From Candidatus Saccharimonadota bacterium (GTDB lineage: Bacteria; Patescibacteriota; Saccharimonadia; Saccharimonadales; DTSZ01): a stretch of DNA of 64,000 nucleotides. The DNA lies in contig DTSZ01000001.1 in the NCBI GenBank assembly GCA_012965045.1, forward strand, positions 6,607-70,606. The letters run 5' to 3'. Position numbers and translations under genes: made by a program. How positions within the stretch are numbered: the first letter of the stretch is position 1; each line of letters starts with the position of its first letter. Below the pieces are notes generated by a model. That model was given only the letters and a program-made list of their open reading frames with translations, was not told where the DNA came from and made no database searches. This document shows positions 6,446 through 64,000 of the stretch, piece by piece.

Positions 6446-6545
6446 AGACCTAATTGTAACGAAAAAAACATATATAAGGTATTTGTTTTTATTTCTCTTT
6501 TATAGTATAATTAACATAATCGAAAAAGGTGTAAGGAGTATTTAC

Positions 6546-7013
6546 ATGGCAGATTTGCAAGAAGCATTGGCAGCTAGAGAGCGTCGTTCGCGATTTACAG
6601 CGATAGCAATTAGTGTAGTTATTATTCTTATTGTTGGTTTTATTGTATTTAGGATTGCTAATAATGGCGACAGCGAACAAGACGTGGCAAGTAGTGGGCA
6701 AGAGCAAACAGAGCAAATCGAGTCAGAATCTGGCGACAATACAGAAACTGCAGTTGACCTCGACGAGTTGTTTGGATCACAAGAAAGTGACGCTAACTCA
6801 GACGAACCTGTGGCTGAAGTCGAAGACGAACCAGCTGAGAGTGCTACCGATACTACTGAGGTTGCGAGCAACGCAACCAGCACGACATCGACTGGGGATC
6901 TTCCTAACACCGGCCCTGCAGAAAACGCAGCACTTGCTGTTGTAGTGCTCGGTGCCGCCTATGCTGTTTATACTCAAAACAAAACGAAACTAGCCGAAGC
7001 TCGGCTTAAATAA
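6546..7013 (+). CDS. Small acidic LPXTG-motif surface protein (sortase substrate) with an N-terminal signal-anchor
   Basis: I prefer the start at MADLQEALAARE.. (ATG 6546) over the track start at 6426. The protein has an N-terminal TM segment (FTAIAISVVIILIVGFIVF) and an Asp/Glu/Ser/Thr-rich middle. The C-terminus reads LPNTG + hydrophobic AALAVVVLGAAYAVY + basic tail KTKLAEARLK, which is a classical cell-wall sorting signal. Confidence 0.65.
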   Translation: MADLQEALAARERRSRFTAIAISVVIILIVGFIVFRIANNGDSEQDVASSGQEQTEQIESESGDNTETAVDLDELFGSQESDANSDEPVAEVEDEPAESATDTTEVASNATSTTSTGDLPNTGPAENAALAVVVLGAAYAVYTQNKTKLAEARLK

Positions 7014-10074: not shown

Positions 10075-11754
10075 ATGGAACAAGAAAGCTTTGCTGAGCC
10101 GGTATTGGTTATAAATCGACCAGAGTCTTTTACTGCTCGTCCAGAAAAAAGCCAAGCAAACTTGCGCCAACGAGCTGCCAAATTTATAAGCGGCTTCCTT
10201 TTGCCAAGCAAAGAGGTTAAGACGAGCAGGGGTGTAGATTCAAAGACATCTATTTTCGACATTTTAGATGTCGATGTTCTTGGTCGGAAAAAGAAGGAAG
10301 AGAAAAAAGAACAACCAACCCTCTGGGAGCGAATACAGGAAAGAGCTCTATACTGGCGCGAAAAAGCAACTACTGATGAAGATACGTTTTTTGATACATG
10401 GCTAAAGAAGAAGACCCCCAATAACGATGTCCATAGTGGCGGCAGTGATTATGGCTTTGATATAGGGGAGTTGTTTTCGATTACAGCAACACAAAGACCG
10501 ACTGAGAGCCTGCTCAGCACAGAAGACGCCCTGCCGGAAGGAGCCGAAAAGCCAACAGGAACAAGAGAAACTATCGTGCAAAAATATTTTACAAAACAAA
10601 AAACTACTATCACCAAACTACTTACTCGGTCTAAAACACCAGAAACACAAGCAGAGTCGGATGCTACAGAATCACTGCCCACTGACCCTTCGGTGAACGT
10701 ACAGCAACCCGCAAAGGCCGAGACAGCTGGAGTTGACCTGTATCATTCAACCGAGAAGAAAGGGCGTACACACAGCGCACTCGGAGCGATCGGTGCAGCT
10801 GTATCGTTAGTTGCTTCTGAGATATCATCAACGCTTCATGTTCCAGCTAATGAAGGTGGAGATAGTGGAGTTGAGTTGGATCCGAAACCAACTCGCATGG
10901 AAGACGATATGAGCACTCCAGACGTTGAGAACAATGTCGCTACGGAGGGCCCGCTTGTTGCGAGAGTAAATTATTTTGACACCGAACAATTAACCGAACA
11001 CTCACAACTACCTCGAGTAGACATAGAAGAAGCAGCTGTCGAGCCTGTTATTGTATTCGAAAGGCGAGTCGTAGAGTCAGTAGACAAACAACCTAAAAAG
11101 ATCAACAAAACAGATCGAATAATTGAACACAAAAATAGTGCAAAGTCACCTTTCGAAGCTACGCAACAACCAGAAATTATTACCATGAATGATGGTGCTC
11201 AAAAAACAAAAGCAAGTGTCAAACAACAAAAATCAAACACAACAACGCAGAAGGAATTACCAAGAACCATTAAGCATAGTCGCAGGGAAAACCAACGGAG
11301 TGTTGTTGACGGTAAAGAGCAGGGTGTTGCGACAGCCAACAGCAAAGCTGATCTAAGTGAACATGCGAGGAGATTTACTGTGCGACGAAAACCCGAGCAC
11401 AGAAAGCTTCAATTTAGAGAAGCCGCACAGCCCGAACGGTATGCCAAAATATCTGAAAAAAAAGAGACAAAACGTATATCACCCGAGAGTGCGGATAAGC
11501 AGGAAATAGACAAGACCGCCAATAAGAAAACTATCGTATCATATGCAGAAATGGTTGCTGCTGCACCTACGCCTGAAAACTATCTACAGAAGCGCCAATT
11601 AGAGTACAGAGTATTGATTGATGACGCTAAACGAGCAGTTGAAAATGCCACACGGTCACTGCGAAACCCGAAGCTACGGTATTGGACTCGACGCAGCGTA
11701 GGGGCGGCTGGGGTAAGTGGAATTGCGTATTCAGTCATTAGGCTGGTATTCTAG
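10075..11754 (+). CDS. Hypothetical 559-aa low-complexity protein with a single C-terminal TM segment (tail-anchored)
   Basis: A long ORF rich in K/E/T/Q/S with no recognisable domain. The only hydrophobic segment is at the extreme C-terminus (SVGAAGVSGIAYSVIRLVF). No obvious SD is present. Confidence 0.5.
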   Translation: MEQESFAEPVLVINRPESFTARPEKSQANLRQRAAKFISGFLLPSKEVKTSRGVDSKTSIFDILDVDVLGRKKKEEKKEQPTLWERIQERALYWREKATTDEDTFFDTWLKKKTPNNDVHSGGSDYGFDIGELFSITATQRPTESLLSTEDALPEGAEKPTGTRETIVQKYFTKQKTTITKLLTRSKTPETQAESDATESLPTDPSVNVQQPAKAETAGVDLYHSTEKKGRTHSALGAIGAAVSLVASEISSTLHVPANEGGDSGVELDPKPTRMEDDMSTPDVENNVATEGPLVARVNYFDTEQLTEHSQLPRVDIEEAAVEPVIVFERRVVESVDKQPKKINKTDRIIEHKNSAKSPFEATQQPEIITMNDGAQKTKASVKQQKSNTTTQKELPRTIKHSRRENQRSVVDGKEQGVATANSKADLSEHARRFTVRRKPEHRKLQFREAAQPERYAKISEKKETKRISPESADKQEIDKTANKKTIVSYAEMVAAAPTPENYLQKRQLEYRVLIDDAKRAVENATRSLRNPKLRYWTRRSVGAAGVSGIAYSVIRLVF

Positions 11755-30815: not shown

Positions 30816-31922
30816 ATGCTACGCAGCCGCTTGGGAACCGCAACAAAAACTGACTGGTTGTTAATTGCAGCTACTGGATTTTTAGTTGGTCTGAGTACCA
30901 CTATTTTATTTGCAATCGAAGAGGGTGCGGCAAACTCAGTTAATTTCTCACCGTATAAACACGTCTTACATGCCTTGATTGGCATTGGATTGGCCGCAGT
31001 AATATCTCGTAGTAATTTCGGTATATGGTACCGTCTGGCCAGCTGGTTGTATTGGGCATCGATACTTCTGTTGTTGATTGTTTTGTTCGCTAATCCAACG
31101 TCTGGTTCATCCCGTTGGATAGAACTTGGGTTTATGCAGTTTCAACCCAGTGAACTGGCAAAATTCGCCCTAATATTGCTTTTAGCGCGGCTGTTTTCTC
31201 GTCGGCGCGGAAAAATGAATAATCCTTTCAACATAGGCCTGTCAATTTTCTACACGGCACTACCGTCGGCGTTGGTCTTGCTTCAGCCCGACCTAGGCAC
31301 GGCAATTGTTTTTGTTGTTATTTGGTTTAGCATGCTGGTAATTAGCGACATAAAGCCGCTGTATCTTGTAGCAGGTTTTATTTTTGTAGCCGTTATCGGC
31401 GCATTATCGGTGCCGCTGCTGCAGGACTACCAGAAACAACGACTGCTAACGTTCTTAGACCCTTCAGCTGACCCGCAGGGCGCAGGCTATAACGTTCGTC
31501 AGGCTAGTATTGCCATTGGAAGCGGCAAGGTTTTTGGTCAGGGTTTAGATTCTGGCACCCAAAGTCAGCTTAATTTTTTGCCAGCCCAGCATACCGACTT
31601 TATATTTGCCGTAACAGCAGAAAAGCTAGGCTTGGTTGGGGCGATGAGTGTAGTAATAGCATTCGGGGTAATTGTAGTTCGCATATTGCAGCACGCTGCT
31701 CGGTTAAAAAACTCTTTTGCGGCCCATGTTTGTTTAGGGGTGGCGGTACTGTTGGCTTTTCATATAATTATTAATATAGGTATGAATCTTGGGCTTGTGC
31801 CGGTTACGGGGTTGCCGCTACCGTTTATGAGCTATGGCGGCACATACCTAGTGATAACCATGGTGGCCATCGGTGTAATGTTAAGTACGCTACGAAAACA
31901 AGAAAATCTAGAATTTGTGTAA
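30816..31922 (+). CDS. SEDS-family peptidoglycan glycosyltransferase (FtsW/RodA)
   Basis: The protein has about 10 TM segments. Conserved blocks are ELGFMQFQPSELAKF, QPDLGTA, TDFIFA and PVTGLPLPFMSYGGT. Confidence 0.85.
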   Translation: MLRSRLGTATKTDWLLIAATGFLVGLSTTILFAIEEGAANSVNFSPYKHVLHALIGIGLAAVISRSNFGIWYRLASWLYWASILLLLIVLFANPTSGSSRWIELGFMQFQPSELAKFALILLLARLFSRRRGKMNNPFNIGLSIFYTALPSALVLLQPDLGTAIVFVVIWFSMLVISDIKPLYLVAGFIFVAVIGALSVPLLQDYQKQRLLTFLDPSADPQGAGYNVRQASIAIGSGKVFGQGLDSGTQSQLNFLPAQHTDFIFAVTAEKLGLVGAMSVVIAFGVIVVRILQHAARLKNSFAAHVCLGVAVLLAFHIIINIGMNLGLVPVTGLPLPFMSYGGTYLVITMVAIGVMLSTLRKQENLEFV

Positions 31923-32321: not shown

Positions 32322-33494
32322 CTATGTACTATTTTTGCTGGTAAGTGTCAAAAATACACCATTGGTCCAGCCAAAGCCTTCTTGGTTGGGGTAGCGACCT
32401 GGTTTGCCAACCGACTGGTTGACGACATCATATTTTTCCCAGAATTTACCTGTTTCTGTAAAAACAGCCATATTTAAACTAAGCCATTTGTCGGCGATGC
32501 GCTGCGCGTCGTCATCAAGGTTATATTTTTTTAGACCATCGATAACAAACCAGTGTAGCGGAGCCCAGCCATTTGGATAGTCCCATTGTTTAAACGGCTG
32601 CATAAGCTGCTGGTCAGTTGTGGCGCTTAAACCGCCAGAATGTTCGAACTCGCTAAGATGATCGACTAGTATTTGAGCTTCTTTTTTGGTTAAAACTTCC
32701 GCAAACAATGGCATAAAACCAGCCAATGATTTAAATGAGCTGATTTGGTTGGATGCAAGATCATAGTCATAAAAGAAACCACCGTGCCCCATAAGCTGTT
32801 TAATAGAAGTAGCTCTGGCTTTGGCTTGTTGTCTGTATTTGTGGGCCTTATCGGCGTTATCAGTAAGCTCATAAAACCACTGTAAATCGAGTTCATAGCG
32901 GTGCAGTAAGCAATTTAGATCAATTGGCACGTAGGACAGAGCATGATTATTGAATCGCGACGTCATATCCCAGCCCGATTCGTGCTCCGCTGTCTGGTCG
33001 ATTAAGTGGTGGTCGGCGTAGCGGCTTAATCCTTGATGGACAAGGTGATCCACAACATGATCAGCTGGATCAATGTTCATCCAATAGCCTGTTAATTCAG
33101 CCTCTGCAGTTGCCATAACTTTTTTTAGCCAAACGGTGTCGCCAGTTTTAGCATAGACCACTCGAGCCATGCTGGTGAGCAGCGGCGGTTGCGATATGCC
33201 GGTGTCGTAGGTTCTATTCCTCATTGGAATTAAGCCGAATCTGTCGAATAAAAACACTAAATTATCAACCATGCCACGGGCCAGGTCGATATTTTGGTCG
33301 TCATCAACTAAGCCTAAAATTATAAAAAAACTGTCCCAGTAGAACTGATCACAATGAAACTGGCCGCCGCTTGGAGACACGAATGGATTCGGTAGTTGAA
33401 TGTAGCTACCAGAGTCTTCTGTGGTGCAGGTCATTAAGTGACCCCAATAATTTTTAATATAGCTCCGTGCGGATTCTATTTGTTTTTGTTCCAT
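32322..33494 (-). CDS. treA: Trehalase (glycoside hydrolase family 37), apparently cytoplasmic
   Basis: GH37 signature-like blocks are SGGQFHCDQFYWDSFF (compare PGGRFxExYyWDsY) and KQWDYPNGWAPLHW (compare QWDxPxgWaP), plus ESGWDMTSRF. I trimmed the start to MEQKQIESARS.. (33494), because the longer track ORF overlaps the parA start. No signal peptide is evident. Confidence 0.85.
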   Translation of the reverse strand: MEQKQIESARSYIKNYWGHLMTCTTEDSGSYIQLPNPFVSPSGGQFHCDQFYWDSFFIILGLVDDDQNIDLARGMVDNLVFLFDRFGLIPMRNRTYDTGISQPPLLTSMARVVYAKTGDTVWLKKVMATAEAELTGYWMNIDPADHVVDHLVHQGLSRYADHHLIDQTAEHESGWDMTSRFNNHALSYVPIDLNCLLHRYELDLQWFYELTDNADKAHKYRQQAKARATSIKQLMGHGGFFYDYDLASNQISSFKSLAGFMPLFAEVLTKKEAQILVDHLSEFEHSGGLSATTDQQLMQPFKQWDYPNGWAPLHWFVIDGLKKYNLDDDAQRIADKWLSLNMAVFTETGKFWEKYDVVNQSVGKPGRYPNQEGFGWTNGVFLTLTSKNST

Positions 33495-33581
33495 AGTAAA
33501 CAGGTTAGCGTGCTTGGTGTATGGGTTGCAAACTGATAAACTAAAGCAAGATAGAAAAATATAAATGTTGAGGGCGTTAAA

Positions 33582-34328
33582 GTGCAAAAAGTGCTTGCGG
33601 TGGCTAACCAAAAGGGTGGGGTTGGCAAGACAACGACTACTATTAATTTGGGTAGCGCACTAGCTCGTGCAGGCTATAAAGTGCTGTTGGTCGATCTTGA
33701 CCCACAAGCTAATACAACCAGTGGACTCGGAGTTGCCCGACCAGAAACCTCAATATATGATCTTCTGTTTGACGACAGCAAAACGGCCCAAACCGTTGTT
33801 GATGCGGGTGAAGTTTCATTAATTCCATCACATCCTAATCTGGCTGCCGCAGAAGTAGAGCTGGTTAGCGAGCTTAATAGGGAACGACGGTTGCAGAATA
33901 TTCTACAAACCACAGCGTTCGACTATGTATTGATAGACTGTCCGCCGTCTTTAGGGATATTAACAATCAATGCGCTTACCGCCGCAGATGGAGTGTTGAT
34001 TCCTGTCCAGGCTGAATATTACGCGCTTGAGGGGTTGAGTCAGTTAGTTGATTCTATTCAACGAGTTCGTGTTGCGCTAAATCCACGCCTGACTATATCT
34101 GGTGTCGTGCTGACTATGGTTGATGAGAGGACCAGCTTATCAAAAGAGGTGCTAGAGCAGGTTAAACGACACTTTGGCGAACTTGTATTTAGTGAATTTG
34201 TGCCACGGAATGTCCGCTTAGCTGAAGCACCAAGCCACGGGGTTAGTGTGTTTGAGCATGACAAATGGAGCAAGGGCGCTCGCGCGTACAAAACGATAGC
34301 GAATGAATTAGTGAAACGAATTGGGTAG
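33582..34328 (+). CDS. parA: Chromosome partitioning ATPase ParA/Soj (GTG start)
   Basis: The deviant Walker A is ANQKGGVGKTTT. LVDLDPQAN and DCPPSLG are also present. Confidence 0.9.
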   Translation: MQKVLAVANQKGGVGKTTTTINLGSALARAGYKVLLVDLDPQANTTSGLGVARPETSIYDLLFDDSKTAQTVVDAGEVSLIPSHPNLAAAEVELVSELNRERRLQNILQTTAFDYVLIDCPPSLGILTINALTAADGVLIPVQAEYYALEGLSQLVDSIQRVRVALNPRLTISGVVLTMVDERTSLSKEVLEQVKRHFGELVFSEFVPRNVRLAEAPSHGVSVFEHDKWSKGARAYKTIANELVKRIG

Positions 34329-35911: not shown

Positions 35912-37441
35912 ATGATGAACAAGAACAGAGGTGGTACACCTCAAGCTAAACTTTCTGGTAAAGGGCGTCCGTTGCGACGCTCTTTACGTGATGCGCGGCC
36001 TATTGGTAAAACTCAGCAACATATAGAAAAAAAGCAAACGACGCGACCTCGACGCCGAAATACTGCTGCAGATTTCGAAAAAGGCCTTAACAGCATCACC
36101 GATGTAGCTAAATCTCCTAAAAAACGGGGCATATACCGATTTAAAAAATTATTGAAATACAGCTTTTTATTGACTGTTTTCGTCGGCGTAGTCATGGCCG
36201 GCTATATAGGCTTTAAGATTTTTACATTCGCCCAAGACGTGATTGTTGACAGGGGTGATGGCGCTCTTGGATTGTCTGGTGATATTGATCCAAGCCAACT
36301 AAAAGGTGAAGGTGACGGCCGCGTGAACGTCTTGCTTGTAGGAATTGGCGGCGACGGCCATGAAGGTGCTAATTTGTCCGATGTCATTATGACCGTCAGT
36401 ATCGACCCAACCAACAACACGGCAGCCATGCTGTCTATCCCACGCGACCTGTACTTAACGATTCCAGGTTATTACTCAACCCGCATAAATGCTGCATATG
36501 CACTAGGCGAGCAAGACCCTGACACAACCGGAGCAGAGGTACTAACCGAAACAGTTGAGGGGATTCTCGACATTGATCTTCATTATTTTGTCCAGATTGA
36601 TTTCCAGGGCTTTATTGAGGTTATTGATCGACTTGGTGGTGTAGAAGTGGATGTACAAGAATACTTACGTGATCCTTTTATCGAAGAGACATTTGGCGGC
36701 GGTTATAGCGGGCCGTTTGAGGTTTTCCCTGGCATCCAGCAAATGGATGGCCCGACCGCCCTACAATATGCTCGGTCTCGAAAAACTACGAGTGACTTTG
36801 ACCGAGCCCGCCGACAGCAAATCGTATTAAAGGCGGTTAAAGACAAAGCTTTGAGCCTTGGAACGTTCTCTAACCCGCTTAAGATTGGCGATATGCTTGA
36901 CTCGCTTGGTCGGAATGTAAAAACCAACATTCAAATATCTGAGATGTTACGCATGCTTGAGATCGCTCAAACCATTAACAACGACACGGTGAGAAGTGAA
37001 GTGCTCGACAATAGTGCTGGCGGGTTTCTTGCCGCACAAAATATCTCGGGTGCTTCTGTATTAGTGCCCCGCGGTGGTTTGAATAATTTCTCTGAAATAC
37101 AAAAATACGTAAAAGGTGATTTATTTGCAGACGGGTTTATTACCAGCGAAAATGCAGCCATAAGTGTATTAAACGCCACAAACACTCCTGGCTTAGCGAC
37201 AGAACTCGGAGAAGAGCTTGAGGAGCTTGGCTACAACGTGGTTGAAATAGGGAACGCCACGTTAGAAGCTGTACCAGAAACAACAATTTTGTATGACAAT
37301 TCTCTCGGAGTCCTGCCGTACACCACGAGTTTACTGGAAAAGCGCCTTGATATTATTGCTCGAGGTAAAGCACCAGAAGTCGGCCAGACAGGTGTGAATG
37401 ATATAGTCATTGTTATAGGAGCGGATTATATCGATGACTGA
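35912..37441 (+). CDS. LytR-CpsA-Psr (LCP) family cell-envelope glycopolymer transferase with a C-terminal LytR_C-like domain
   Basis: A basic cytoplasmic N-terminus is followed by one TM segment. The LCP core shows NVLLVGIGGDG....SDVIM..SI......A.MLSIPRDL and ARSRK.TSDFDRARRQQ. Confidence 0.8.
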   Translation: MMNKNRGGTPQAKLSGKGRPLRRSLRDARPIGKTQQHIEKKQTTRPRRRNTAADFEKGLNSITDVAKSPKKRGIYRFKKLLKYSFLLTVFVGVVMAGYIGFKIFTFAQDVIVDRGDGALGLSGDIDPSQLKGEGDGRVNVLLVGIGGDGHEGANLSDVIMTVSIDPTNNTAAMLSIPRDLYLTIPGYYSTRINAAYALGEQDPDTTGAEVLTETVEGILDIDLHYFVQIDFQGFIEVIDRLGGVEVDVQEYLRDPFIEETFGGGYSGPFEVFPGIQQMDGPTALQYARSRKTTSDFDRARRQQIVLKAVKDKALSLGTFSNPLKIGDMLDSLGRNVKTNIQISEMLRMLEIAQTINNDTVRSEVLDNSAGGFLAAQNISGASVLVPRGGLNNFSEIQKYVKGDLFADGFITSENAAISVLNATNTPGLATELGEELEELGYNVVEIGNATLEAVPETTILYDNSLGVLPYTTSLLEKRLDIIARGKAPEVGQTGVNDIVIVIGADYIDD

Positions 37442-38255
37442 CGAAGCCCCACAACCGGAGATTATTAAGAAGCCTTTTAAGGAGCTGGTTTTAACTCAGG
37501 TAGCTCGGTTAATAAATGTCGCTATGATTGTTGCGGCCTATTTGCTCATAAGCAATGATTTGTTCGAGATTGCTTTAGTAGTTTTTATTTTTAGTAAGTG
37601 GCGGATATTTTTTACACGACCACGACTGTGGTTTACGAATCTAGTTAATTCACTGTGTGATGTGACGTTCGGTCTGTCTATTTTGCGGCTAATGGAGCTG
37701 TATTATCCAGTCGACGAACAGATTGCGATTGGATTAGCCGGGGTGTTGTTTATATGGCAGTTAATCCTTAAACCCTTAACCTCCCACTGGGCTGTTCGGC
37801 TTCAGGCACTACTGTGTATAGTAGCCGCGAATACGACAATTTGGACATTGTACGCCGACCCTGACATGCTGCACGGATCACTCGCTGTCCTTCTTAGTAT
37901 TATTGCGGCCTACGCTTCGGGGCGACATGTCTTGCGCCAAGTTGATAGTGAAAAAATTCGTGAAGAAATTCGCGGTAAAATTTTAACGGTTTGGGTGTTT
38001 ATTGCAGCTCAACTGGCGTGGTTTTTTTGGCTGTGGAATGTGTATTACGGTCTGCGATTATTTGACGTGTACGTACCGCAAGCAGCAATTATATTTGGTA
38101 TAACATTTTCGTATTTAGGTTCCGTGCTGTTGTACCAACAACCAGAAGAATCCAAACCGTCTTCACGACGATTTATGGTGCAACAAACTATTTCGTATAG
38201 CATAATTATGGTTGCTATTATTGTTCTTACGAACTGGAATACGAGTATTCAATAA
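37434..38255 (+). CDS. Hypothetical polytopic membrane protein
   Basis: A 273-aa ORF with about 7 hydrophobic segments and no motif I recognise. Its start overlaps the stop of the LCP gene by 8 nt. Confidence 0.5.
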   Translation: MTDEAPQPEIIKKPFKELVLTQVARLINVAMIVAAYLLISNDLFEIALVVFIFSKWRIFFTRPRLWFTNLVNSLCDVTFGLSILRLMELYYPVDEQIAIGLAGVLFIWQLILKPLTSHWAVRLQALLCIVAANTTIWTLYADPDMLHGSLAVLLSIIAAYASGRHVLRQVDSEKIREEIRGKILTVWVFIAAQLAWFFWLWNVYYGLRLFDVYVPQAAIIFGITFSYLGSVLLYQQPEESKPSSRRFMVQQTISYSIIMVAIIVLTNWNTSIQ

Positions 38256-53628: not shown

Positions 53629-55569
53629 ATGGCAACCATCCAAGACTACCGAAACGAACAACTCGAAAAACTCGAAGCACTAAAAGCCAAAAGGATTAAT
53701 CCGTACCCAGCAACCAGCAGGCGCACGGTATCTGTAGAGGATATTCTTGGTAATTTTGATGTCCGTGAAGGCAACCAAGTTGTTGTGGCGGGCCGTGTTG
53801 TCTCAGTGCGTACTCATGGTCGGCTTAATTTTATCGACTTACAAGACGGTCTACATAAAATTCAACTGGTTTTTAAAGATGGTGAGGTGGTTGAAAACTA
53901 CGAAGACGGTAAACTCGCATTTAGCGACATTAACCTCCTTGCGCGCGGAGATTTTATTGAAGCAGCTGGTGCGGTAGGGAAGTCCAAAACTGGTCAAGAA
54001 AGTGTAATGGTTGCATGGTATGCAGTGCTAAGTAAAGTGTTGCGGCCGTTGCCCGACGAGCTGGTTGATAAAGAAGCACGGTTTAGGCGACGCTACTTAG
54101 ACATGGCTGTAAACAAAGAAGTGCGCGAGCGGTTTTTACGACGCAGCAAATTTTGGCAAGCCACCAGAAATTACTTAAATAAACGTCAGTTTGTAGAGGT
54201 AAATATTCCAGTGCTGGAGCACACCACCGGGGGCGCAGATGCAAAGCCATTTGTTACGCATATGGATGCGCTCGACCAGGATTATTTTTTGCGGATTAGC
54301 CACGAACTGCCCCTAAAACGACTGCTTGGAGCTGGTTTTGAGCGAGTGTATGACATTGGCCCGCGCTTTAGAAACGAACATATCAGTGACGAACATCTGC
54401 CAGAACACATTGCAATGGAGAGTTATGCGGCCTATCAAAACTATGAAGAGGCAATGGATTTTTACGAAAAAATGATTCAGTACGTTGCTCAAGAAACGTG
54501 GGGAACGCTGCAATTTGACGATGCGAACGGTTTTGCTGTTGATTTGTCTGGTAAATGGCCAGTTCGTAGCTATGCCGATGTTTTGCAAGAAGAATTTAAT
54601 GTTGATGTATTTAACCCCGATCGCCAACAACTACTGAAAATACTGAAAGACAATAACGTAGAACTTGAATCTGACGAGGTGAGTGTTGGCAGATTGATCG
54701 ATAACGTCTGGAAGATTATTCGGCGCAAAAGCGCTGGACCATATTGGCTTGTACATGAACCAGCTAGCATGTCACCACTTGCTAAAACCGACCCAGCAGA
54801 CCCACGGTTAGCCTTGCGGTTCCACCCAATTATCGCTGGAAGCGAACTTGGCAATGGCTTTGCGGAGCTCAATGACCCGCAAGAACAGCTAGCCCGATTT
54901 AAAGAGCAACAAGCTATGCGTGATGGTGGTGACGACGAAGCTCAGATGTTGGATATTGACTATGTTGAAATGCTCGAATATGGCATGCCAACTGCTTGTG
55001 GCTGGGGTAATTCAGAGCGTAACTTTTGGTTATTAGAAGGTGTCACAGCGCGAGAAGGAGTGCCGTTCCCACACATGCGTTTTGAAATTGATGATAATAC
55101 TAAAGAAATCTATGATCTAAATAATTCAAAAAATAATCGTGATAGAAAGCAGGATTTTTCTAAACGAGTTGTGATTGTGGTTGATAAACAGCTTGAAAAT
55201 TGGCAGATAGCCAATGCTGTCGGACACACAAGCGCATACCTGGGGAATCAGCTTTCAAAAGAAGATTTTGATACTGCAGATTATTTCATAACAAAGGATT
55301 CTGCCGAGTTACCAAGGAACTCACAGTACCCAATTATTATTAAACGCGCTGCCTCAAAAGATCTAAAAAAGCTATATATAAAACTGCAGTCTTCTCACTT
55401 AAAGCACCATGTATTTATCAAGGAGATGATCGACACAACTGACGATACAGAGATTGTTGAGAAACTCAGTAAGAAAACCCGTGAAGATTTAGTAATCTAC
55501 GGTATTGGTGTTTTCGGTCCGAATGGAGATGTGAATGAGCTGACGAAAAACTTCCAACTTTGGACTTAG
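53629..55569 (+). CDS. lysS: Lysyl-tRNA synthetase (class II) fused to a C-terminal ~162-aa PTH2/DUF2000-like domain
   Basis: The core (aa 1-484) has an OB anticodon-binding domain and class II motifs (..FRNEHISDEHLPEH.., ..GSELGNGFAELNDP.., ..EYGMPTACGWGNSER..), ending ..VPFPHMR. The extension (55081-55566) reads ..KRVVIVVDKQLENWQIANAVGHTSAYLG...LVIYGIGVFGPNGDVNELTKNFQLWT. Confidence 0.9.
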   Translation: MATIQDYRNEQLEKLEALKAKRINPYPATSRRTVSVEDILGNFDVREGNQVVVAGRVVSVRTHGRLNFIDLQDGLHKIQLVFKDGEVVENYEDGKLAFSDINLLARGDFIEAAGAVGKSKTGQESVMVAWYAVLSKVLRPLPDELVDKEARFRRRYLDMAVNKEVRERFLRRSKFWQATRNYLNKRQFVEVNIPVLEHTTGGADAKPFVTHMDALDQDYFLRISHELPLKRLLGAGFERVYDIGPRFRNEHISDEHLPEHIAMESYAAYQNYEEAMDFYEKMIQYVAQETWGTLQFDDANGFAVDLSGKWPVRSYADVLQEEFNVDVFNPDRQQLLKILKDNNVELESDEVSVGRLIDNVWKIIRRKSAGPYWLVHEPASMSPLAKTDPADPRLALRFHPIIAGSELGNGFAELNDPQEQLARFKEQQAMRDGGDDEAQMLDIDYVEMLEYGMPTACGWGNSERNFWLLEGVTAREGVPFPHMRFEIDDNTKEIYDLNNSKNNRDRKQDFSKRVVIVVDKQLENWQIANAVGHTSAYLGNQLSKEDFDTADYFITKDSAELPRNSQYPIIIKRAASKDLKKLYIKLQSSHLKHHVFIKEMIDTTDDTEIVEKLSKKTREDLVIYGIGVFGPNGDVNELTKNFQLWT

Positions 55570-56786
55570 CTTTTTAGTAGTCGTCTAATAGCAATATCAA
55601 AAGCTGCTTCTTTAAGGCTGATGTTGTTATCTTGAGAATATTTCCAAACAGCTTCGGTGGCAGGGGTTATTTGGTTCTGTAGTTTTTGCACTACATCATC
55701 GGCCGACCAGGATTCATTCAGTCGGTTTTGCATCCACTCAAAGTAGCTGACTATTACGCCACCGGCATTCGCCAGAACGTCTGGTATTACCACAATACCT
55801 TTATGTGTTAGGTAGTCGTAGGCTTCATCGGTTGTCGGCCCATTGGCCATTTCTACTGCTACCGTAGCTTTAATGGCGCCCATATTTTCTTTAGTCACAG
55901 AGTTTTCCAAAGCTGCAAGTACTAAAATGTCGCATTCGAGTTCTAGTATCTGGCCACCTTCCAATACCTCACCAAAATTACTGTCGGCTAGTTTCCCTCG
56001 ACCAGACTTGTATTTAGCTACAGCGGCAATGTCCAAACCATTCTGGTTAATGACAGCTCCGCTGGAGTCTGATATTGCAATAACGCTCCAGCCTAATTCA
56101 TGCGCAACTTGGGCAAACCATATACCAACATTGCCAGCACCTTGCACAGCAACCGTCGGCTTTTTTGAGACGTCTCTGGACAGTGTGTCGAGTATGGTTT
56201 TTGTAACAATAACGCCGCCGCGTCCAGTGGCATCTTCGCGACCATGGCTGCCACCTTTACCGACAGATTTACCGGTGAATGTAGCTGGTGCTTGGGTGTT
56301 GGTGTGCTCTTGGTATTCGTGTAACATCCAGTCGATAATTTGAGCGTTGGTATTTACATCCGGAGCAGGAACGTCACGATCAGGACCAATTATCGGTGCT
56401 AACTTACGGGCGAACTGTCGAGCTAGAGACTCGAGCTCGTCAGCCGTTAGATCTTTGGGGTTTACGGCAATCCCGCCTTTGCCGCCGCCCATTGGAATAT
56501 CAACCAAGGAATTTTTAATTGACATAAGGGTCGCTAGTCCGGTCACTTCTTCAGCAGTAACATCAGGGTGGAATCGTAGCCCGCCTTTATACGGTCCGCG
56601 TGAATTGTCGTGCTGGGCGCGGTATGCATCGTAGACGACTGTTTCGCCGTTTTGTTTGCTGAGCGGCAACCGAAGATGAGCAACTAAGTCCGGCGCTAGT
56701 AAATGTTCTAAGTCCTCGTCACTTAATCCAAGTCGAGCTGCAGACTTTTTTATAATTTCGTGGGCATTTTGCAAGATAGTACTCAA
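55566..56786 (-). CDS. gdhA: Glutamate dehydrogenase (Glu/Leu/Phe/Val dehydrogenase family)
   Basis: KGGLRFHP and the catalytic-Lys region GGGKGG are present. The Rossmann motif is VQGAGNVG. Confidence 0.9.
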   Translation of the reverse strand: MSTILQNAHEIIKKSAARLGLSDEDLEHLLAPDLVAHLRLPLSKQNGETVVYDAYRAQHDNSRGPYKGGLRFHPDVTAEEVTGLATLMSIKNSLVDIPMGGGKGGIAVNPKDLTADELESLARQFARKLAPIIGPDRDVPAPDVNTNAQIIDWMLHEYQEHTNTQAPATFTGKSVGKGGSHGREDATGRGGVIVTKTILDTLSRDVSKKPTVAVQGAGNVGIWFAQVAHELGWSVIAISDSSGAVINQNGLDIAAVAKYKSGRGKLADSNFGEVLEGGQILELECDILVLAALENSVTKENMGAIKATVAVEMANGPTTDEAYDYLTHKGIVVIPDVLANAGGVIVSYFEWMQNRLNESWSADDVVQKLQNQITPATEAVWKYSQDNNISLKEAAFDIAIRRLLKS

Positions 56787-58568: not shown

Positions 58569-61160
58569 ATGAAAACAGTACTTAAACGCCTGTTAGGTGG
58601 CGATCAGCAAGGCCGTAGACTTAAAGCGCTCAATAAGCGAGTAGCGAAAATTAATGAGCTCGCGCCAGACATAAAAAAGCTGAGCGACACACAGCTGCGT
58701 ACGCGCATGGACGAAATAAAAGCGAGTGTTAGAGCCGAAGAGGTGAGCCTAGAAACACAGCTTAACGAAGTATTTGCTATCACCAGAGAAATGTCCGAAC
58801 GAGTGCTTGAAATGCGCCACTTTGATGTTCAGTTGGTTGGCGGCATGGTGTTGCACGAAGGTGATATTGCCGAAATGCGCACCGGTGAAGGTAAAACGTT
58901 GGTTGCCACACTACCTATGGTGCTTAATGCGCTCGAAGGTAAGGGTGCTCACTTGGTGACCGTTAACGACTATCTGGCCAAGCGTGACGCAGGCTGGATG
59001 GCTCAGCTATACGATGCCCTTGGCCTCAGTGTCGGTGTTATTGCCCCACAACAGAGCTACATTTATGACCCTGAATATACCGATGACAGCCACGACGATG
59101 AACGCTTGTGGCACTTAAAGCCCTGCTCGCGCCAAGACGCTTATAAGGCTGACATTACCTACGGAACTAATAACGAGTTTGGCTTTGATTACTTGCGCGA
59201 CAACATGGTTGGTAGCCCGAAAGACTTACGGCAGCGCGAACTTCATTATGCGATTGTTGACGAGGTCGACTCGATCTTAATCGACGAAGCTCGGACACCG
59301 CTAATTATTTCTGCTCCAGCAAGTAGTAGTAGTAATCAGTACGAGGTTTTCTCAAAAGCTATTCGCATGCTAAAGCCAGACGAGCACTACGAAGTCGACG
59401 AAAAGCAACGCAGCTCAACACTAACCGATGCCGGTGTTGAGAAAATGCAGGAACTGCTTGGTATCGATAATTTGTATGACCCACAACATGTTCAAGCTGT
59501 GTACCACATGGACCAAGCTCTAAAAGCCCAGACGTTATTTAAAAAAGACAAAAACTATGTCGTTAACAACGGCGAGGTGATTATTGTCGATGAATTTACC
59601 GGACGGTTGATGCAAGGTCGACGCTACAGTGAAGGCCTTCACCAAGCGATTGAGGCTAAAGAAGGCGTTAATGTGCTGCAAGAAAGCACAACTCTTGCCA
59701 CTATTTCGTTCCAAAACTATTTTAGGTTGTACACTAAGCTCTCTGGCATGACTGGCACGGCCGAAACCGAAGCCGAAGAATTTTATCAAATATATAAACT
59801 CGATGTTGCTGTTATCCCAACTAACAAACCAATTGCTCGTGTCGACCATGCAGACAAAATTTTCAAAACAGAGAACGGTAAGTTCAAGGCAATCATTGAA
59901 GACATACAACAAAAACAAGCAGACGGTCAGCCAGTGCTGATCGGTACTGCATCTGTTGATAAAAACGAGCTATTAAGTCGCGCTTTAAGTAAGGCTGGTG
60001 TAAAACACGAAGTTTTGAATGCTAAAAACAACGAGCGTGAAGCCGCAATCGTTGCCGCAGCCGGCGAAAAGGGCGCAGTCACTCTAGCTACCAACATTGC
60101 TGGTCGTGGTACCGACATTAAACTGGCGGACGGCGTCAAAGAACTTGGCGGTCTGCATGTTATCGGTACCGAACGCCACGAGTCGCGTCGAATAGATAAC
60201 CAGCTACGTGGACGTTCCGGACGTCAGGGTGACCCCGGTTCTACTCAGTTTTATGTGTCGGCAGAAGACGAATTAATTCGAATCTTTAGCGGCGAAAAAA
60301 TGAAGGGGTTAATGGAGCGGTTCGGCGTAGATGATGAAACGCCAATACAACATAAAGCTGTTTCGCGCGTACTAGAACAAGCTCAAAAGAAAGTAGAGAA
60401 CTTTAACTTTGATTCGAGGAAGAATGTTGTTCAGTACGACGACGTTATGAACCGTCACCGTAAGAGCATTTATAGTTTACGAAAAGACATTTTAACGAAG
60501 GATCAAATAAACGAATTGGTCGAAGAAGTTATTCGCGACGAGGTTGATGCCTTACAGCAGGCTCCAGAGCCAAAAACTGAAACAATTGTTGCCGAATTTA
60601 AGCGGCTTATTCCGTTAACCAACGCTGAAGAGAAAAAACTTAAAAAGGTATCAGTTGATAACTTAGACACTGAATTAACCGATCTAGCTATTGCAAAACA
60701 CAATCAGCGTAAAGAAGAGTTTGGCGATGAAATAATGGGTCTTATGGAGCGTGAGATATATTTACGTCTACTTGATGACTTATGGATGCAGCACCTTGAG
60801 AACATGCAACATTTACGCGAAGGCATTAATTGGCGCAGTGTTGGTCAAAGAGACCCCTTAGTTGAATACCGCCGGGAAGGTCAAAACTATTTTGAAGGTC
60901 TTATGGTAGAGCTTAAGACTCGGGTCGTACAACTGCTATTTAGAACTCAGCCGCGCATTGAGCAACCTACCGAGCAAGCAGAAGTCCAAACCGAGCTAAC
61001 TAAAGCAGCCGAACAGGCGAGTACCAGCGGCGGCGGTGCAGAAGCGCCAAAATCTAAAACTAAAACTCGCACAATCAGAGGTTCAGCAAACCAAAAAGAT
61101 ACTACAACTAAAAAGTCTACCGAACGGTACCAAAAACGTAAGAAGAAAAATCGACGCTAG
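58569..61160 (+). CDS. secA: Preprotein translocase ATPase SecA
   Basis: MRTGEGKTLVA is Walker A, VDEVDSILIDEARTPLIIS is the DEAD-like block, and TNIAGRGTDI is also present. The protein is 863 aa with a basic tail. Confidence 0.95.
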   Translation: MKTVLKRLLGGDQQGRRLKALNKRVAKINELAPDIKKLSDTQLRTRMDEIKASVRAEEVSLETQLNEVFAITREMSERVLEMRHFDVQLVGGMVLHEGDIAEMRTGEGKTLVATLPMVLNALEGKGAHLVTVNDYLAKRDAGWMAQLYDALGLSVGVIAPQQSYIYDPEYTDDSHDDERLWHLKPCSRQDAYKADITYGTNNEFGFDYLRDNMVGSPKDLRQRELHYAIVDEVDSILIDEARTPLIISAPASSSSNQYEVFSKAIRMLKPDEHYEVDEKQRSSTLTDAGVEKMQELLGIDNLYDPQHVQAVYHMDQALKAQTLFKKDKNYVVNNGEVIIVDEFTGRLMQGRRYSEGLHQAIEAKEGVNVLQESTTLATISFQNYFRLYTKLSGMTGTAETEAEEFYQIYKLDVAVIPTNKPIARVDHADKIFKTENGKFKAIIEDIQQKQADGQPVLIGTASVDKNELLSRALSKAGVKHEVLNAKNNEREAAIVAAAGEKGAVTLATNIAGRGTDIKLADGVKELGGLHVIGTERHESRRIDNQLRGRSGRQGDPGSTQFYVSAEDELIRIFSGEKMKGLMERFGVDDETPIQHKAVSRVLEQAQKKVENFNFDSRKNVVQYDDVMNRHRKSIYSLRKDILTKDQINELVEEVIRDEVDALQQAPEPKTETIVAEFKRLIPLTNAEEKKLKKVSVDNLDTELTDLAIAKHNQRKEEFGDEIMGLMEREIYLRLLDDLWMQHLENMQHLREGINWRSVGQRDPLVEYRREGQNYFEGLMVELKTRVVQLLFRTQPRIEQPTEQAEVQTELTKAAEQASTSGGGAEAPKSKTKTRTIRGSANQKDTTTKKSTERYQKRKKKNRR

Positions 61161-62497
61161 TGATTGAATTTGCACAAAAACAGGTGGCAGTTGCAGGGTT
61201 TGGCGTAGAAGGTCAGGCGACAGCAAAATTTCTTCAAACACGCGGAGCGATTGTAACGGTGCTTGATGAAAACACCCAGCTTGATCAGGCAGGGCCGTAT
61301 ACGTTTAAGGTAGGTAAACAAGCGTTTTCTGATCTTGAATCATACGACTTTGTGTTTCGCACTGCTGGACTGCATCCACGGAAATTATCAGTCGATCAGT
61401 CCAAAATTCTTACCGCCTACAGCCTTCTGCTGCAAGACTACAGGCAACAGGTTATTGGGGTGACTGGGACTAAGGGCAAAGGCACTACATCGACGTTAAT
61501 CGGGCATATTTTAAAAGCCGCTGGTAAAGACGTTTATGTGGCGGGTAACATCGGCCACAGTCCACTCGACTTTTATGACCAACTAACTGCCGACTCATTA
61601 ATTGTTATGGAGCTGTCGAGTTTTCAGCTTATTGATGCGCAGCAGTCACCACATGCGGCTGTTATGTTAATGATCGAACCTGACCATATGGATTGGCATA
61701 GCAACATGGACGAATATATTGACTCAAAACTTAATCTTGTTCGATTTCAGTCAGATCTTGATATCGCTGTTTATAATCCCGAAAATCCTAACACCAAAGA
61801 TATTAGCCAGGAGTTTGAATGGGCTTTGCCATATTTGCGTGGAACTCAAGGTCATGTGCGAAATGGTTATATTTGTTTTGCCGAAAATAAAATCACTCCA
61901 GTTAGTGAAGTTGGCCTGATTGGTCCGCATAACCTCGAAAATATTTGTGCAGCAACAACTGTTTGTTGGTACATTCTAAAAGAACAGGGTTTGGATGAAA
62001 AACAGATTATTACCGCGCTTAATGCTGCAATCCGTAGTTTTAGTGGTCTGCCGCATCGTAATGAAGATCTAGGTGAGGTAAATGGGGTTCGCTACATTAA
62101 CGATACGTTCTCAGCCAACCCAATTGCGTTGCAGGCGGCATTGTCTTCTTTTGAGCAACCAAAAATTCCTATCGTTGGCGGATTTGATAAAAAAGTCGGC
62201 CAAGAAAACATTATAAAAGCGCTTATTAAATATACGGATTCGATCCGTCACGTGGTGTTGATTGGTCAAACAGCTGAGGCGATTGCTGAATTACTCCAAC
62301 ACGCAGGGTTTAGTAATTACTCGATTTTGCCGCTTAACACCAACATGAAGACGATCGTTGCTATGGCAAACAGTCATGCAGAGCCTGGAGATGTTGTGTT
62401 GCTGAGTCCGGGCCATGCTAGTTTTGATATGTTCAAAAACTATAAAGATCGCGGTGAGCAGTTTAAGCAGGCTGTCGCGGAGCTAAGCAATGAGTAG
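61160..62497 (+). CDS. murD: UDP-N-acetylmuramoyl-L-alanine--glutamate ligase homologue (MurD family; possibly the L-Glu-adding MurD2 type)
   Basis: The N-terminal Rossmann region is VAGFGVEGQA. The Mur ligase P-loop is GVTGTKGKGTTS. The protein also carries the central and C-terminal Mur ligase domains (..HRNE..NDT.SANP..). The GTG start overlaps the secA stop. Confidence 0.8.
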   Translation: MIEFAQKQVAVAGFGVEGQATAKFLQTRGAIVTVLDENTQLDQAGPYTFKVGKQAFSDLESYDFVFRTAGLHPRKLSVDQSKILTAYSLLLQDYRQQVIGVTGTKGKGTTSTLIGHILKAAGKDVYVAGNIGHSPLDFYDQLTADSLIVMELSSFQLIDAQQSPHAAVMLMIEPDHMDWHSNMDEYIDSKLNLVRFQSDLDIAVYNPENPNTKDISQEFEWALPYLRGTQGHVRNGYICFAENKITPVSEVGLIGPHNLENICAATTVCWYILKEQGLDEKQIITALNAAIRSFSGLPHRNEDLGEVNGVRYINDTFSANPIALQAALSSFEQPKIPIVGGFDKKVGQENIIKALIKYTDSIRHVVLIGQTAEAIAELLQHAGFSNYSILPLNTNMKTIVAMANSHAEPGDVVLLSPGHASFDMFKNYKDRGEQFKQAVAELSNE

Positions 62498-63698
62498 GGT
62501 CCAAACCTTCATTTTCGATCACTTTGGTTATGATGCCGACGCAAAAGTGGCTGATTTTTACTATAAAACAGATGCTGGTCATGAATTTCATGAACGGCTG
62601 GAGTTTAATCATGCCCACGTTAATGACTTTCCGCTTACAGCCCTCGAAGAAGCCCTTAAACTGTACTGGCTTTTAGCCGGTGTTTCATATTACAAGGCTC
62701 ATTTGGCTACCACAATCGAATTTAATGCTCATAATATTGATGCCTGGCAAGCCGAGAGATTAAACACAATTTACACCAATGGACTTGGCGAATTTTTGTA
62801 TATGAATGAACGAGGCCCAGATGCAGTTGCATCGTTTTTTGGCTTTCAAGACGACCGCGAAAGAACCGTGCCAAAGACTGTGGTGTCAGAGGCAGCTTTG
62901 GTGCTTATTGGCGGAGGCAAGGACTCATTAACTACTGTTAGTTTGTTTGACCAACAACGCCAACCATATGAGATTTTTAGAGTTAACCCCCAGGGCTGGA
63001 TTGTTGATCAAATGTCAGAAATTGGCGTCCCGCCCATTACTGTCGAACGCACGATTGATTCGTTTTTAACTTCTGACGAAGACCAAATGAAGGGGCATGT
63101 GCCGATAACGGCAATTATTTCGGCCAGCGCTATTATAGCTGGCATCCTTGGCGGTTTTGCCGATGTTGTTACCAGTAACGAAAAGTCTGCCGATGACCCC
63201 AACATTACAGAGTACGAGGGAATGGCCATTAACCACCAGTGGTCGAAAGGCTTAGAACTAGAAAACATAATGCAACAATGGACACGACGCTATATTAGCA
63301 GCGACCTTCGGTACTATTCGTATTTAAGAGAAATGACTGAACCGCAGATTGCCGAGATTTTTAGTCGTACAGCTTTTGAGCGGTTTAGTGGTTTGTGGTC
63401 GTCGAGTAACGAGAACTTTAAGCAAGACTCTGATGGAACATTAAGTTGGGACTTACGGTCGTCAAAAGCGATCTCTACGTTTATATTGTTGCTGCCTCAT
63501 ATTAAAAAAGAAAGCCTTATTGCAGAATTTGGCGGTAATCCGCTAGATATGGCTGAAAATAAGGACATGGTTTTGAAGTTGCTTGGCAAAAAAGACATCA
63601 AACCATTCGAGTGCGTGCCGTCGCCATATGAACTACAAGTGTCCATGGAGCAGGCAACAAAAAGCCAATGGCCAGAACTACAAGCATACTTAGGCTAG
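62490..63698 (+). CDS. Conserved hypothetical protein with a PP-loop-like GGGKDS motif; candidate MurL-type UDP-MurNAc-L-Ala-L-Glu epimerase (hypothesis)
   Basis: This 402-aa ORF overlaps the murD-like stop by 8 nt, suggesting translational coupling. The central LVLIGGGKDSLTT resembles the SGGxDS PP-loop of ATP pyrophosphatases. The CDS itself is well supported, but the functional assignment comes from context and memory only. Confidence 0.4.
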   Translation: MSRVQTFIFDHFGYDADAKVADFYYKTDAGHEFHERLEFNHAHVNDFPLTALEEALKLYWLLAGVSYYKAHLATTIEFNAHNIDAWQAERLNTIYTNGLGEFLYMNERGPDAVASFFGFQDDRERTVPKTVVSEAALVLIGGGKDSLTTVSLFDQQRQPYEIFRVNPQGWIVDQMSEIGVPPITVERTIDSFLTSDEDQMKGHVPITAIISASAIIAGILGGFADVVTSNEKSADDPNITEYEGMAINHQWSKGLELENIMQQWTRRYISSDLRYYSYLREMTEPQIAEIFSRTAFERFSGLWSSSNENFKQDSDGTLSWDLRSSKAISTFILLLPHIKKESLIAEFGGNPLDMAENKDMVLKLLGKKDIKPFECVPSPYELQVSMEQATKSQWPELQAYLG

Positions 63699-63787: not shown

Positions 63788-64000
63788 ATGGAAACTACAC
63801 CCTTACATCCCGAGCAAGAAGCTACATTCGAGAGATTAGCTATTCATTCGGCTAGCGAAGTTATCTCAAAATCCGAAGTCAAAGGTAGCGCAGAATCTCA
63901 ACCACCACAAGATGTCGTCATAGATAGAGCAGATCTAGGGCTGTTTGTTGCGATCGATGGTGTCGGTGGGAATGGAGGAGGTGACTTAGCGGCTGAAAGT
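63788..64000 (+). CDS. PP2C-family Ser/Thr protein phosphatase, N-terminal fragment (continues beyond the window)
   Basis: My translation is METTPLHPEQEATFERLAIHSASEVISKSEVKGSAESQPPQDVVIDRADLGLFVAIDGVGGNGGGDLAAES. It contains the PP2C motif ..lfaVaDGmGGh..G..As. Confidence 0.65.
   Translation, partial: METTPLHPEQEATFERLAIHSASEVISKSEVKGSAESQPPQDVVIDRADLGLFVAIDGVGGNGGGDLAAES

Follow-up and report, generated by a model that had tools for sequence, protein, structure and literature searches.

Where does a Saccharibacterium obtain the D-glutamate of its peptidoglycan when the genomic slot in which its relatives keep a glutamate racemase gene, murI, is occupied by another gene? The question is raised by a 64,000-nucleotide (64-kb) stretch of DNA from Candidatus Saccharimonadota bacterium (contig DTSZ01000001.1), referred to in its entirety as the window, in which a gene for a MurD-type ligase overlaps a second open reading frame (ORF2). 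ORF2 is an intact homologue of the epimerase MurL that is under selection, is translationally coupled to murD, and lies in that slot. The pair is probably the Saccharibacterial version of the MurD2/MurL route to peptidoglycan D-glutamate. As in Xanthomonas oryzae, the same two families stand side by side with the MurD homologue outside the division and cell wall (dcw) cluster, and the predicted net reaction is likewise the incorporation of L-Glu followed by its epimerisation at the cost of ATP. The enzymes of this route carry the numbers EC 5.1.1.23 (MurL) and EC 6.3.2.53 (MurD2).

In X. oryzae, MurL is encoded by XOO_1319 and MurD2 by XOO_1320 (Feng et al., 2017; reviewed in PMC8788868 and PMC5808125); a preliminary description of the present locus had exchanged the two tags (PMC8788868). 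MurL uses one ATP, releases AMP, and works in the L-to-D direction only (PMC8788868; PMC5808125). Epimerase activity is known only for the enzymes of X. oryzae, Micromonospora and Salinispora (PMC8788868). The corresponding genes of the window, taken from its list of open reading frames (ORFs), are as follows.

61160..62497, plus strand: murD, UDP-MurNAc-L-Ala--glutamate ligase of the Mur ligase family (TIGR01087, Pfam Mur_ligase_M and Mur_ligase_C); GTG start, 445 aa.
62490..63698, plus strand: murL (ORF2), MurL homologue (NF041275, Pfam MurL_N and MurL_epimerase_C, all invariant residues present); ATG start, 402 aa.

ORF2 matches over its full length the NCBIfam model NF041275, which describes MurL, UDP-N-acetyl-alpha-D-muramoyl-L-alanyl-L-glutamate epimerase: residues 4-395 align with model positions 7-400 of 447 (E=4e-73, 246 bits). 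No other NCBIfam model, including those of QueC and TtuA, matched ORF2. The equivalog cutoff of the model, 700 bits, is judged specific to Xanthomonadales, since it is not reached by Pelagibacterium (403), which is among the published hosts; Stenotrophomonas has 826 and an E/R-type Saccharibacterium 360. The window's MurL retains 32 of the 32 columns that are invariant across 86 aligned MurLs, among them GGGKDS, H203, NHQ at 248-250, K253, C375 and E381. This alignment takes in Stenotrophomonas maltophilia and Pelagibacterium, whose proteins are 32-33% identical to the window's. Two Pfam domains, MurL_N (PF26299) and MurL_epimerase_C (PF26298), are precomputed for an identical protein and cover ORF2. 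The preliminary description was therefore correct in proposing a MurL homologue and wrong in calling the family unknown. The Pfam-A copy scanned against ORF2 returned no family because that copy holds no MurL models, and its silence is not evidence of novelty. Identical proteins are on record on a scaffold of 929,678 bp and a contig of 75.8 kb from a Candidatus Saccharibacteria genome of hydrothermal-vent origin; the source record names the ligase "UDP-N-acetylmuramoyl-L-alanine--D-glutamate ligase" and ORF2 "hypothetical protein EYO12_00300".

The association of the two genes recurs in other bacteria. In a scan of one genome per species, MurL relatives were found in at least 597 genomes, and a murD homologue adjoins murL in 79 of the 80 best loci. 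Among the genomes listed are Saccharibacteria, Peribacteria, Peregrinibacteria, Parcubacteria, Microgenomates, Levyibacteriota, Moraniibacteriota and Gracilibacteria and, beyond the candidate phyla radiation (CPR), Alphaproteobacteria, Xanthomonadales and one member of the Weeksellaceae. A profile search of 1.84 billion representatives returned 3,724 family members at E <=0.001. The order murD-murL is found in the window and ten Saccharibacterial loci; the other loci, including those of the Proteobacteria, have murL-murD in contrast. MurD and MurL are also found fused in single proteins of 799-914 aa, in both orders, in 16 of the top 150 family representatives. Examples are encoded at L018 3989-6370, L035 3986-6445 and L078 3998-6442; P0124, P0128 and P0136 have the MurD-MurL order, and P0134, P0147, P0159, P0168 and others the reverse. 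On one CPR contig (L090 2264-8086), murL is inserted within the dcw cluster itself, in the order mraY-murL-murD-ftsW-murG-...-ftsA, so that the MurL-linked MurD is evidently the main MurD of that cell. Given the synteny and the fusions, together with this insertion, the functional link between MurD and MurL that had been proposed for the pair is not in doubt. The adjacency to murD and the invariance of GGGKDS in 86 homologues are far beyond chance.

The motif that had first drawn attention to ORF2, LIGGGKDSLTT (residues 139-149, nt 62904-62936), had been likened to the SGGxDS loop of ATP pyrophosphatases, and the likeness proved to mark a fold. The parts of MurL that matter here are listed below.

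62910..62927, plus strand: PP-loop motif GGGKDS, residues 141-146, invariant in 45 and in 86 homologues.
62886..63695, plus strand: C-terminal PP-loop ATP-pyrophosphatase-like domain, approximately residues 133-402, from Foldseek and the model.
62490..62879, plus strand: N-terminal domain (MurL_N), approximately residues 1-130, from the models, with a weak RNase H-like topology match.
63612..63614, plus strand: Cys375 in KPFECV, invariant in 86 of 86 and kept despite the loss of four other cysteines; candidate acid/base for C-alpha proton exchange.

An AlphaFold2 model of MurL built from 45 homologues is confident (predicted local distance difference test, pLDDT, 94.6; predicted template modelling score, pTM, 0.94). 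On this model the C-terminal domain has the PP-loop ATP pyrophosphatase fold: a strand (136-139), GGGKDS (141-146) and a helix (144-155) occupy the classic PP-loop position of a Rossmann-like domain, and GGGKDS is the predicted site at which the ATP alpha-phosphate and pyrophosphate would bind. Foldseek searches of the PDB with the model retrieved almost nothing but PP-loop ATP pyrophosphatases, namely Cap9, TtuA, QueC, PH0300, YcfA, GMP synthetase, argininosuccinate synthetase and NMN synthetase, with scores of 3e-4 for Cap9 (9nto_B) and 1e-3 for QueC (2pg3), and a target-normalised template modelling score (TM) of 0.53 over 191 columns for QueC 3bl5. Just three structures in the list, at ranks 38-47, are unrelated. 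The N-terminal domain, modelled alone (pLDDT 80.8), gave an RNase H-like topology at TM 0.41-0.44, which is too weak and was not used. A sequence search of the PDB with ORF2 returned noise alone (E >0.3), and hence there is no solved MurL structure.

The chemistry of PP-loop enzymes is the adenylation of a carboxylate or carbonyl oxygen, from which AMP and pyrophosphate (PPi) result. MurL resembles the family, which comprises QueC, TtuA/Ncs6, Cap9, QatC and the GMP, argininosuccinate and NAD synthetases, in the strand, SGGxDS-type loop and helix that open the Rossmann-like domain, and in an adenylating chemistry with AMP as product. It differs in its extra N-terminal domain of about 130 residues and in lacking significant sequence similarity: aligned by hhalign with E. 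coli QueC, the MurL profile places GGGKDS in register with SGGQDS, but the match is not significant (E=0.027, probability 1.8%). The substrate also differs, being the carboxylate of a UDP-muramyl dipeptide, and the adenylate proceeds to stereo-inversion and hydrolysis rather than to transfer to a nucleophile. The CxxCxxC cluster of most MurLs presumably resembles the zinc site of QueC. The discoverers of MurL noted that it "lacks known conserved domains" and hypothesised adenylation of the alpha-carboxylate (PMC8788868; PMC5808125). The PP-loop fold explains the published ATP-to-AMP chemistry.

Combining the fold with the published reaction, a mechanism may be proposed. MurD would ligate glutamate, at least in part L-Glu, onto UDP-MurNAc-L-Ala. 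The PP-loop domain of MurL would then adenylate the alpha-carboxylate of the terminal L-Glu, converting ATP to AMP and PPi, and this adenylation would acidify the C-alpha proton. Conserved residues, for which Cys375, His203, His249, Lys253 and Glu381 are the candidates, would invert C-alpha, possibly via an oxazolone or enolate, and hydrolysis would follow. The epimerase reaction, its one-way direction and the formation of AMP are taken here from published work on other MurLs, and the adenylation site and catalytic residues are those suggested by the model and by conservation; a role for Cys375 as acid/base in C-alpha proton exchange would fit its invariance in the alignment.

What murL replaces is indicated by its genomic position. 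The murD locus of Saccharimonadia is anchored on its upstream side by a conserved gene, secA:

58569..61160, plus strand: secA, from the ORF and its SecA Pfam domains.

In Saccharimonadia the slot reads secA-(M16 peptidase)-murD-X-release factor-ftsEX, where X is either murL or a convergent gene for a PF01177 MurI-type racemase. The slot holds murL in the window, L085-L089 and L096, and the racemase in L093, L094, L097-L103, L107, L109, L111 and L166. In the slot racemases the MurI motifs FDSGVGG, ACNT and GCTHY are present, and these proteins are similar to E. coli MurI (E=2e-27 and 3e-23). A metagenome scan with these racemases yielded 69 loci, and ten of the closest have murD abutting. None of 72 racemase loci (the 69, L093 and L094, and L166, which has murD) contains MurL; conversely, no racemase was found in the flanks available of the window, the 10 kb beyond it (L001) and about 90 MurL loci. 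This mutually exclusive occupancy of one slot is the strongest comparative evidence that murL replaces the racemase, and murL would accordingly represent a non-orthologous displacement of a MurI-type racemase in its genomic slot.

The two alternatives both supply D-Glu for peptidoglycan from the same place beside murD, by means that share little. MurI (PF01177) has an unrelated fold, is cofactor-free and reversible, and takes free glutamate as its substrate, prior to ligation, whereas MurL acts on the nucleotide-dipeptide after ligation. Some Saccharimonadia racemases are unusually short for MurI-type enzymes at 213-221 aa (L093 5268-5918, minus strand; L094 5276-5917, minus strand; L166 334-999); these genes, of about 215 codons, converge on the 3' end of murD with a slight overlap. 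In one further locus of the Saccharimonadales (L095 5386-5898), murD is followed by a 170-aa ORF that has an apparent signal peptide, in place of either murL or a racemase, and the MurD of that locus has the racemase-type signature Ser346/Lys348.

Several observations weigh against a MurD2/MurL-type route in this organism or limit the case for it. First, E. coli MurI and lineage-specific racemase queries hit nothing in about 74 kb (the window and L001), which is a small share of the scaffold of about 930 kb. The proposal that murL replaces a racemase thus has strong comparative support from the slot swap and from the two genes never occurring together in the flanks, but its genomic check extends over that share alone. 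No racemase from the 929,678-bp scaffold appeared among the top 120 lineage-specific racemase matches, which is weak evidence, and no D-amino-acid transaminase gene (dat) was seen in the window by a Pfam scan of the 30 larger ORFs, the sole search made for it, in which no dat query was used. We infer that the genome lacks a racemase. A racemase is reported to be active in another Saccharibacterium, Candidatus Saccharimonas aalborgensis (Penalver 2024, cited in PMC11974145).

Second, the window's MurL, about 32% identical to that of Xanthomonadales, is without the cysteine cluster SSCN...WCGxCPKC found in about 90% of the family: it reads SSSN...WDLRSSKAIS, with all four cysteines gone. The cluster has also been lost in L085-L090 and L070, and the cysteine-less state is found in at least eight intact homologues of 40-63% identity, each coupled to murD. 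The four-cysteine cluster is probably a structural metal site that is not universal to the family.

Third, the ligase does not carry the residues by which MurD2 is known. The window's MurD is securely a member of its family: it scores 324.9 bits against TIGR01087 (cutoff 212) and 195 bits against Streptococcus agalactiae MurD (3lk7), and it shares with canonical MurD (E. coli b0088; 1UAG, 2JFF, 3LK7, 4BUC) the three-domain Mur ligase architecture, the P-loop, the DH motif, Asp182 and Lys348. It differs from canonical MurD in its position outside the dcw cluster, in Phe for Lys319 and in being coupled to an epimerase. The "D-glutamate ligase" label of TIGR01087 is silent on chirality, because the MurL-adjacent ligase of Stenotrophomonas also passes. 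The residues under discussion, placed by alignment, are as follows.

61466..61489, plus strand: ATP-binding P-loop GTKGKGTT of MurD, residues 103-110, aligned with the P-loop of solved MurDs.
61682..61684, plus strand: Asp175 (D182 in E. coli, E197 in X. oryzae MurD2), chirality-switch position 1.
62108..62110, plus strand: Phe317, equivalent to E. coli K319.
62183..62185, plus strand: Phe342, equivalent to E. coli position 346, candidate specificity determinant and the only column tracking the partner.
62189..62191, plus strand: Lys344 (K348 in E. coli, R358 in X. oryzae MurD2), chirality-switch position 2; its state is canonical, of the racemase type.

In X. oryzae MurD2, chirality is controlled by Glu197 and Arg358, and changing both (E197D/R358K) turns the enzyme into a D-Glu ligase (PMC8788868). 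The window has Asp175 and Lys344 at these positions, the very pair created in that mutant, and the preliminary identification of the ligase as MurD2 is supported neither here nor by the pocket residues described below. The two positions are not equally informative. Among 82 MurL-linked MurDs, E. coli position 182 is Glu in 71 and Asp in 11, and position 348 is Arg in 78 and Lys in 4; in the 16 fusions, position 182 is Glu in 8, Asp in 7 and Ala in 1, and position 348 is Arg in 15 and Thr in 1. Because seven of 16 MurL-fused MurDs have it, Asp at 182 is evidently tolerated and weakly diagnostic. The Ala and Thr belong to one fusion, P0168, which has both at the two "chirality" positions. Lys348 occurs in 10 of 10 racemase-linked CPR MurDs and, among MurL-linked MurDs, is confined to the window's clade, whose seven members (the window, L085, L087, L088, L089 and L096, plus L086, which has Arg348) are all MurL-linked.

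Position 319 is a further candidate, since the K319T substitution makes E. coli MurD accept L-Glu (PMC8788868). None of the CPR MurDs examined has Lys there, be the partner a racemase or MurL, and consequently the position does not discriminate in this lineage; a rule that Lys319 is lost solely in MurL-linked MurDs was rejected on the same grounds.

A column contrast between 10 racemase-linked and 12 E/R-type MurL-linked MurDs of Saccharimonadia identified six columns that separate the two without overlap (E. coli numbering; racemase-linked versus MurL-linked): 333, F versus I/V/L; 346, S (one H) versus F/Y/K; 348, K versus R; 406, V versus A/S/T; 413, C/H versus F (one S); and 422, Y (one V) versus F. 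The window's MurD is racemase-type at five of the six (F331, K344, V412, H419 and Y428). At the sixth it departs from the racemase-linked CPR MurDs, with Phe342 in place of Ser346. Position 346 reads F, Y, Q, V, H, A and V in the seven clade members and is non-Ser in 19 of 19 MurL-linked MurDs, against nine Ser and one His in the racemase-linked set. Five further racemase-linked MurDs, unused in deriving the rule, all have Ser346 and Lys348, which brings Ser346 to 14 of 15. In the 120 nearest MurDs, where Asp and Glu are split 63/57, Lys and Arg 60/60, and position 319 is again never Lys, the classes are non-Ser346/Arg348 (59), Ser346/Lys348 (43), non-Ser346/Lys348 (17, the window's class) and Ser/Arg (1). 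All Saccharimonadia MurDs form one clade in a bootstrapped neighbour-joining tree (90% support), within which the partner classes are interleaved; the partner has therefore been switched within a single ligase lineage. An earlier neighbour-joining tree with a single "MurL-linked MurD clade" was an outgroup artefact that vanished once racemase-linked CPR MurDs were added.

These residues make it conceivable, and we entertain it tentatively, that the window represents a third, intermediate state, in which MurL displaced the racemase in situ and MurD keeps a D-Glu-type pocket (Lys348, Tyr422, His/Cys413) with Ser346 alone changed. If so, the residues that set L-Glu acceptance would lie outside the Glu197/Arg358 pair, position 346 being the candidate; alternatively, the ligase would take both isomers and MurL would serve as an irreversible "chirality corrector". 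Either way, MurL here would work without the cysteine cluster of most of its family.

A live rival, which we nevertheless regard as unlikely, is that MurD in this clade still acts chiefly on D-Glu or takes either isomer, that the D-Glu is supplied by a racemase encoded away from murD or by the host, and that MurL serves as a chirality corrector. Asp175, Lys344 and the racemase-type pocket speak for it, as do the interleaving of the window's clade with racemase-linked MurDs and the intermediate look of the non-Ser346/Lys348 class. Weak promiscuity also exists in canonical MurDs, slight acceptance of L-Glu having been reported for that of S. mutans (PMC8788868). However, MurL and a racemase were never found in one locus within the flanks available, and the scaffold contributed none to the top 120 lineage-specific racemase matches, weak as that evidence is. 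The change of Ser346 in seven of seven clade members suggests adaptation of the pocket to a new partner. Moreover, if the role of MurL were purely corrective, its strict translational coupling could hardly be expected to persist throughout a clade in which MurL identity has fallen to 40-63%.

Very improbable is the view that ORF2 is a PP-loop enzyme with another job, resembling QueC, Cap9 or QatC in nucleobase, defence or tRNA-modifying functions, and lies beside murD by chance. Its best structural matches are indeed Cap9, TtuA and QueC, and the empty Pfam-A scan and the name "hypothetical protein" may be listed in its favour. The full-length MurL match, unaccompanied by any to QueC, TtuA or another NCBIfam model, and the lack of significant sequence similarity to QueC argue against it, and adjacency in 79 of 80 loci together with covalent fusions rules out a chance neighbourhood; this view is effectively refuted. 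A Cap9/QatC-like defence role was rejected, as PADLOC defence models match neither MurD nor MurL. Least credible of all is that MurL is a decaying remnant after loss of the Zn/Cys cluster and that MurD has reverted to D-Glu use: the four lost cysteines and the canonical MurD residues would suit it, but 32 of 32 invariant residues, a full-length ORF and a confident model contradict it, and the persistence of cysteine-less MurL in the intact, murD-coupled homologues indicates long-term purifying selection.

The MurD2/MurL-type route is held to be the best explanation because published MurL acts solely on the L-Glu dipeptide, so that at least some of the product of the ligase has to be this dipeptide. 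We infer L-Glu use by the window's MurD from its partner rather than from the ligase, because the MurD2 signature is missing and the pocket is racemase-type at five of six columns.

The arrangement of the pair with its neighbours is compact, and two further features lie at the junction.

62479..62482, plus strand: GGAG, a Shine-Dalgarno-like element read from the sequence, within the end of murD and 7 nt 5' of the murL ATG.
62490..62497, plus strand: murD/murL overlap, ATGAGTAG, 8 nt; overlaps are 4 nt in Saccharibacterial homologues.

The 3' end of murD reads ...AAT GAG TAG, with the murL ATG inside it, and this overlap suggests translational coupling. The last base of the secA stop codon (TAG, 61158-61160) is the first base of the murD GTG, a 1-nt overlap, so that secA, murD and murL are packed without gaps; about 90 nt then separate murL from the next gene. 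The coordinates, the overlap and the position after secA given in the preliminary description agree with the ORF list and the junction sequence. Its placement of murD outside a dcw cluster also stands, as mraY, murG and ftsW are absent beside the pair. A RodA/FtsW-family gene is at 30816-31922, about 30 kb away. No other Mur ligase was found in the 64 kb by tblastn. The window encodes a full wall-building set (mreB, mreC, PBP2, rodA, ftsA, ftsZ and an LCP protein), which counts in favour of the proposed route. The GC content of the murD-murL region equals that of the remaining window, and a promoter and terminator scan of 58-64 kb gave nothing exceeding shuffled expectation.

Upstream of the pair are gdh (minus strand), serS, hpf and secA. 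The secA-(M16)-murD arrangement is also found in L085, L086, L088, L094, L095 and L096, and L085 keeps the entire gdh-serS-hpf-secA-murD-murL block. The glutamate dehydrogenase gene (55566-56786, minus strand), four genes 5' of murD, could provide a local source of L-Glu, or its position could be mere synteny. Directly 5' of the murD-murL pair of L089 is a reverse-transcriptase (RVT_1) gene (1294-2271), which may belong to a group II intron or retron. Right after murL comes the gene for a 744-aa PP2C/SpoIIE-type phosphatase (63788-64000, plus strand, continuing into L001 11299-13533), and beyond it are several ORFs without a Pfam match, a release-factor gene and an ftsE-like ABC ATPase gene.

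Other genes of the window deserve mention. The lysyl-tRNA synthetase (53629-55569, plus strand) has a C-terminal DUF2000 domain (PF09391), an unusual fusion. The gene at 23222-26005 (plus strand) encodes a class II (B12-dependent) ribonucleotide reductase whose C-terminal domain is TSCPD, in a genome of less than 1 Mb. A trehalase/MGH1-like glycoside hydrolase (32322-33611, minus strand; PF01204, E=2.7e-85) lies among housekeeping genes. Four ORFs on the plus strand, of 559, 273, 181 and 195 aa (10075-11754, 37434-38255, 4227-4772 and 6426-7013), match no Pfam family at E <=1e-5.

The MurD2/MurL pathway and both of its families are already known and curated. What the window adds is a variant form, in which a cysteine-less MurL accompanies a ligase that has kept Lys348 and lost Ser346, from a phylum that does not figure in the papers searched. 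Its host is an episymbiont of the CPR, a group outside the published distribution of MurD2/MurL hosts, and the literature searched contained no paper linking MurL to Saccharibacteria, Patescibacteria, the CPR or the PP-loop fold. Published reviews describe the route as limited to relatively few genera and hence as a narrow-spectrum antibiotic target. With about 3,700 MurL representatives at 50% identity and at least 597 species genomes, including many of the CPR, this few-genera premise changes. When the metabolism of a reduced genome is reconstructed, it would be a mistake to count the lack of murI as a break in wall synthesis in any case where murL occurs. The PP-loop assignment gives the ATP-to-AMP chemistry of MurL a concrete, testable basis and names candidate catalytic residues. 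Finally, the alternation of racemase and epimerase partners within one MurD lineage provides three natural signature classes for mapping how MurD distinguishes L-Glu from D-Glu.

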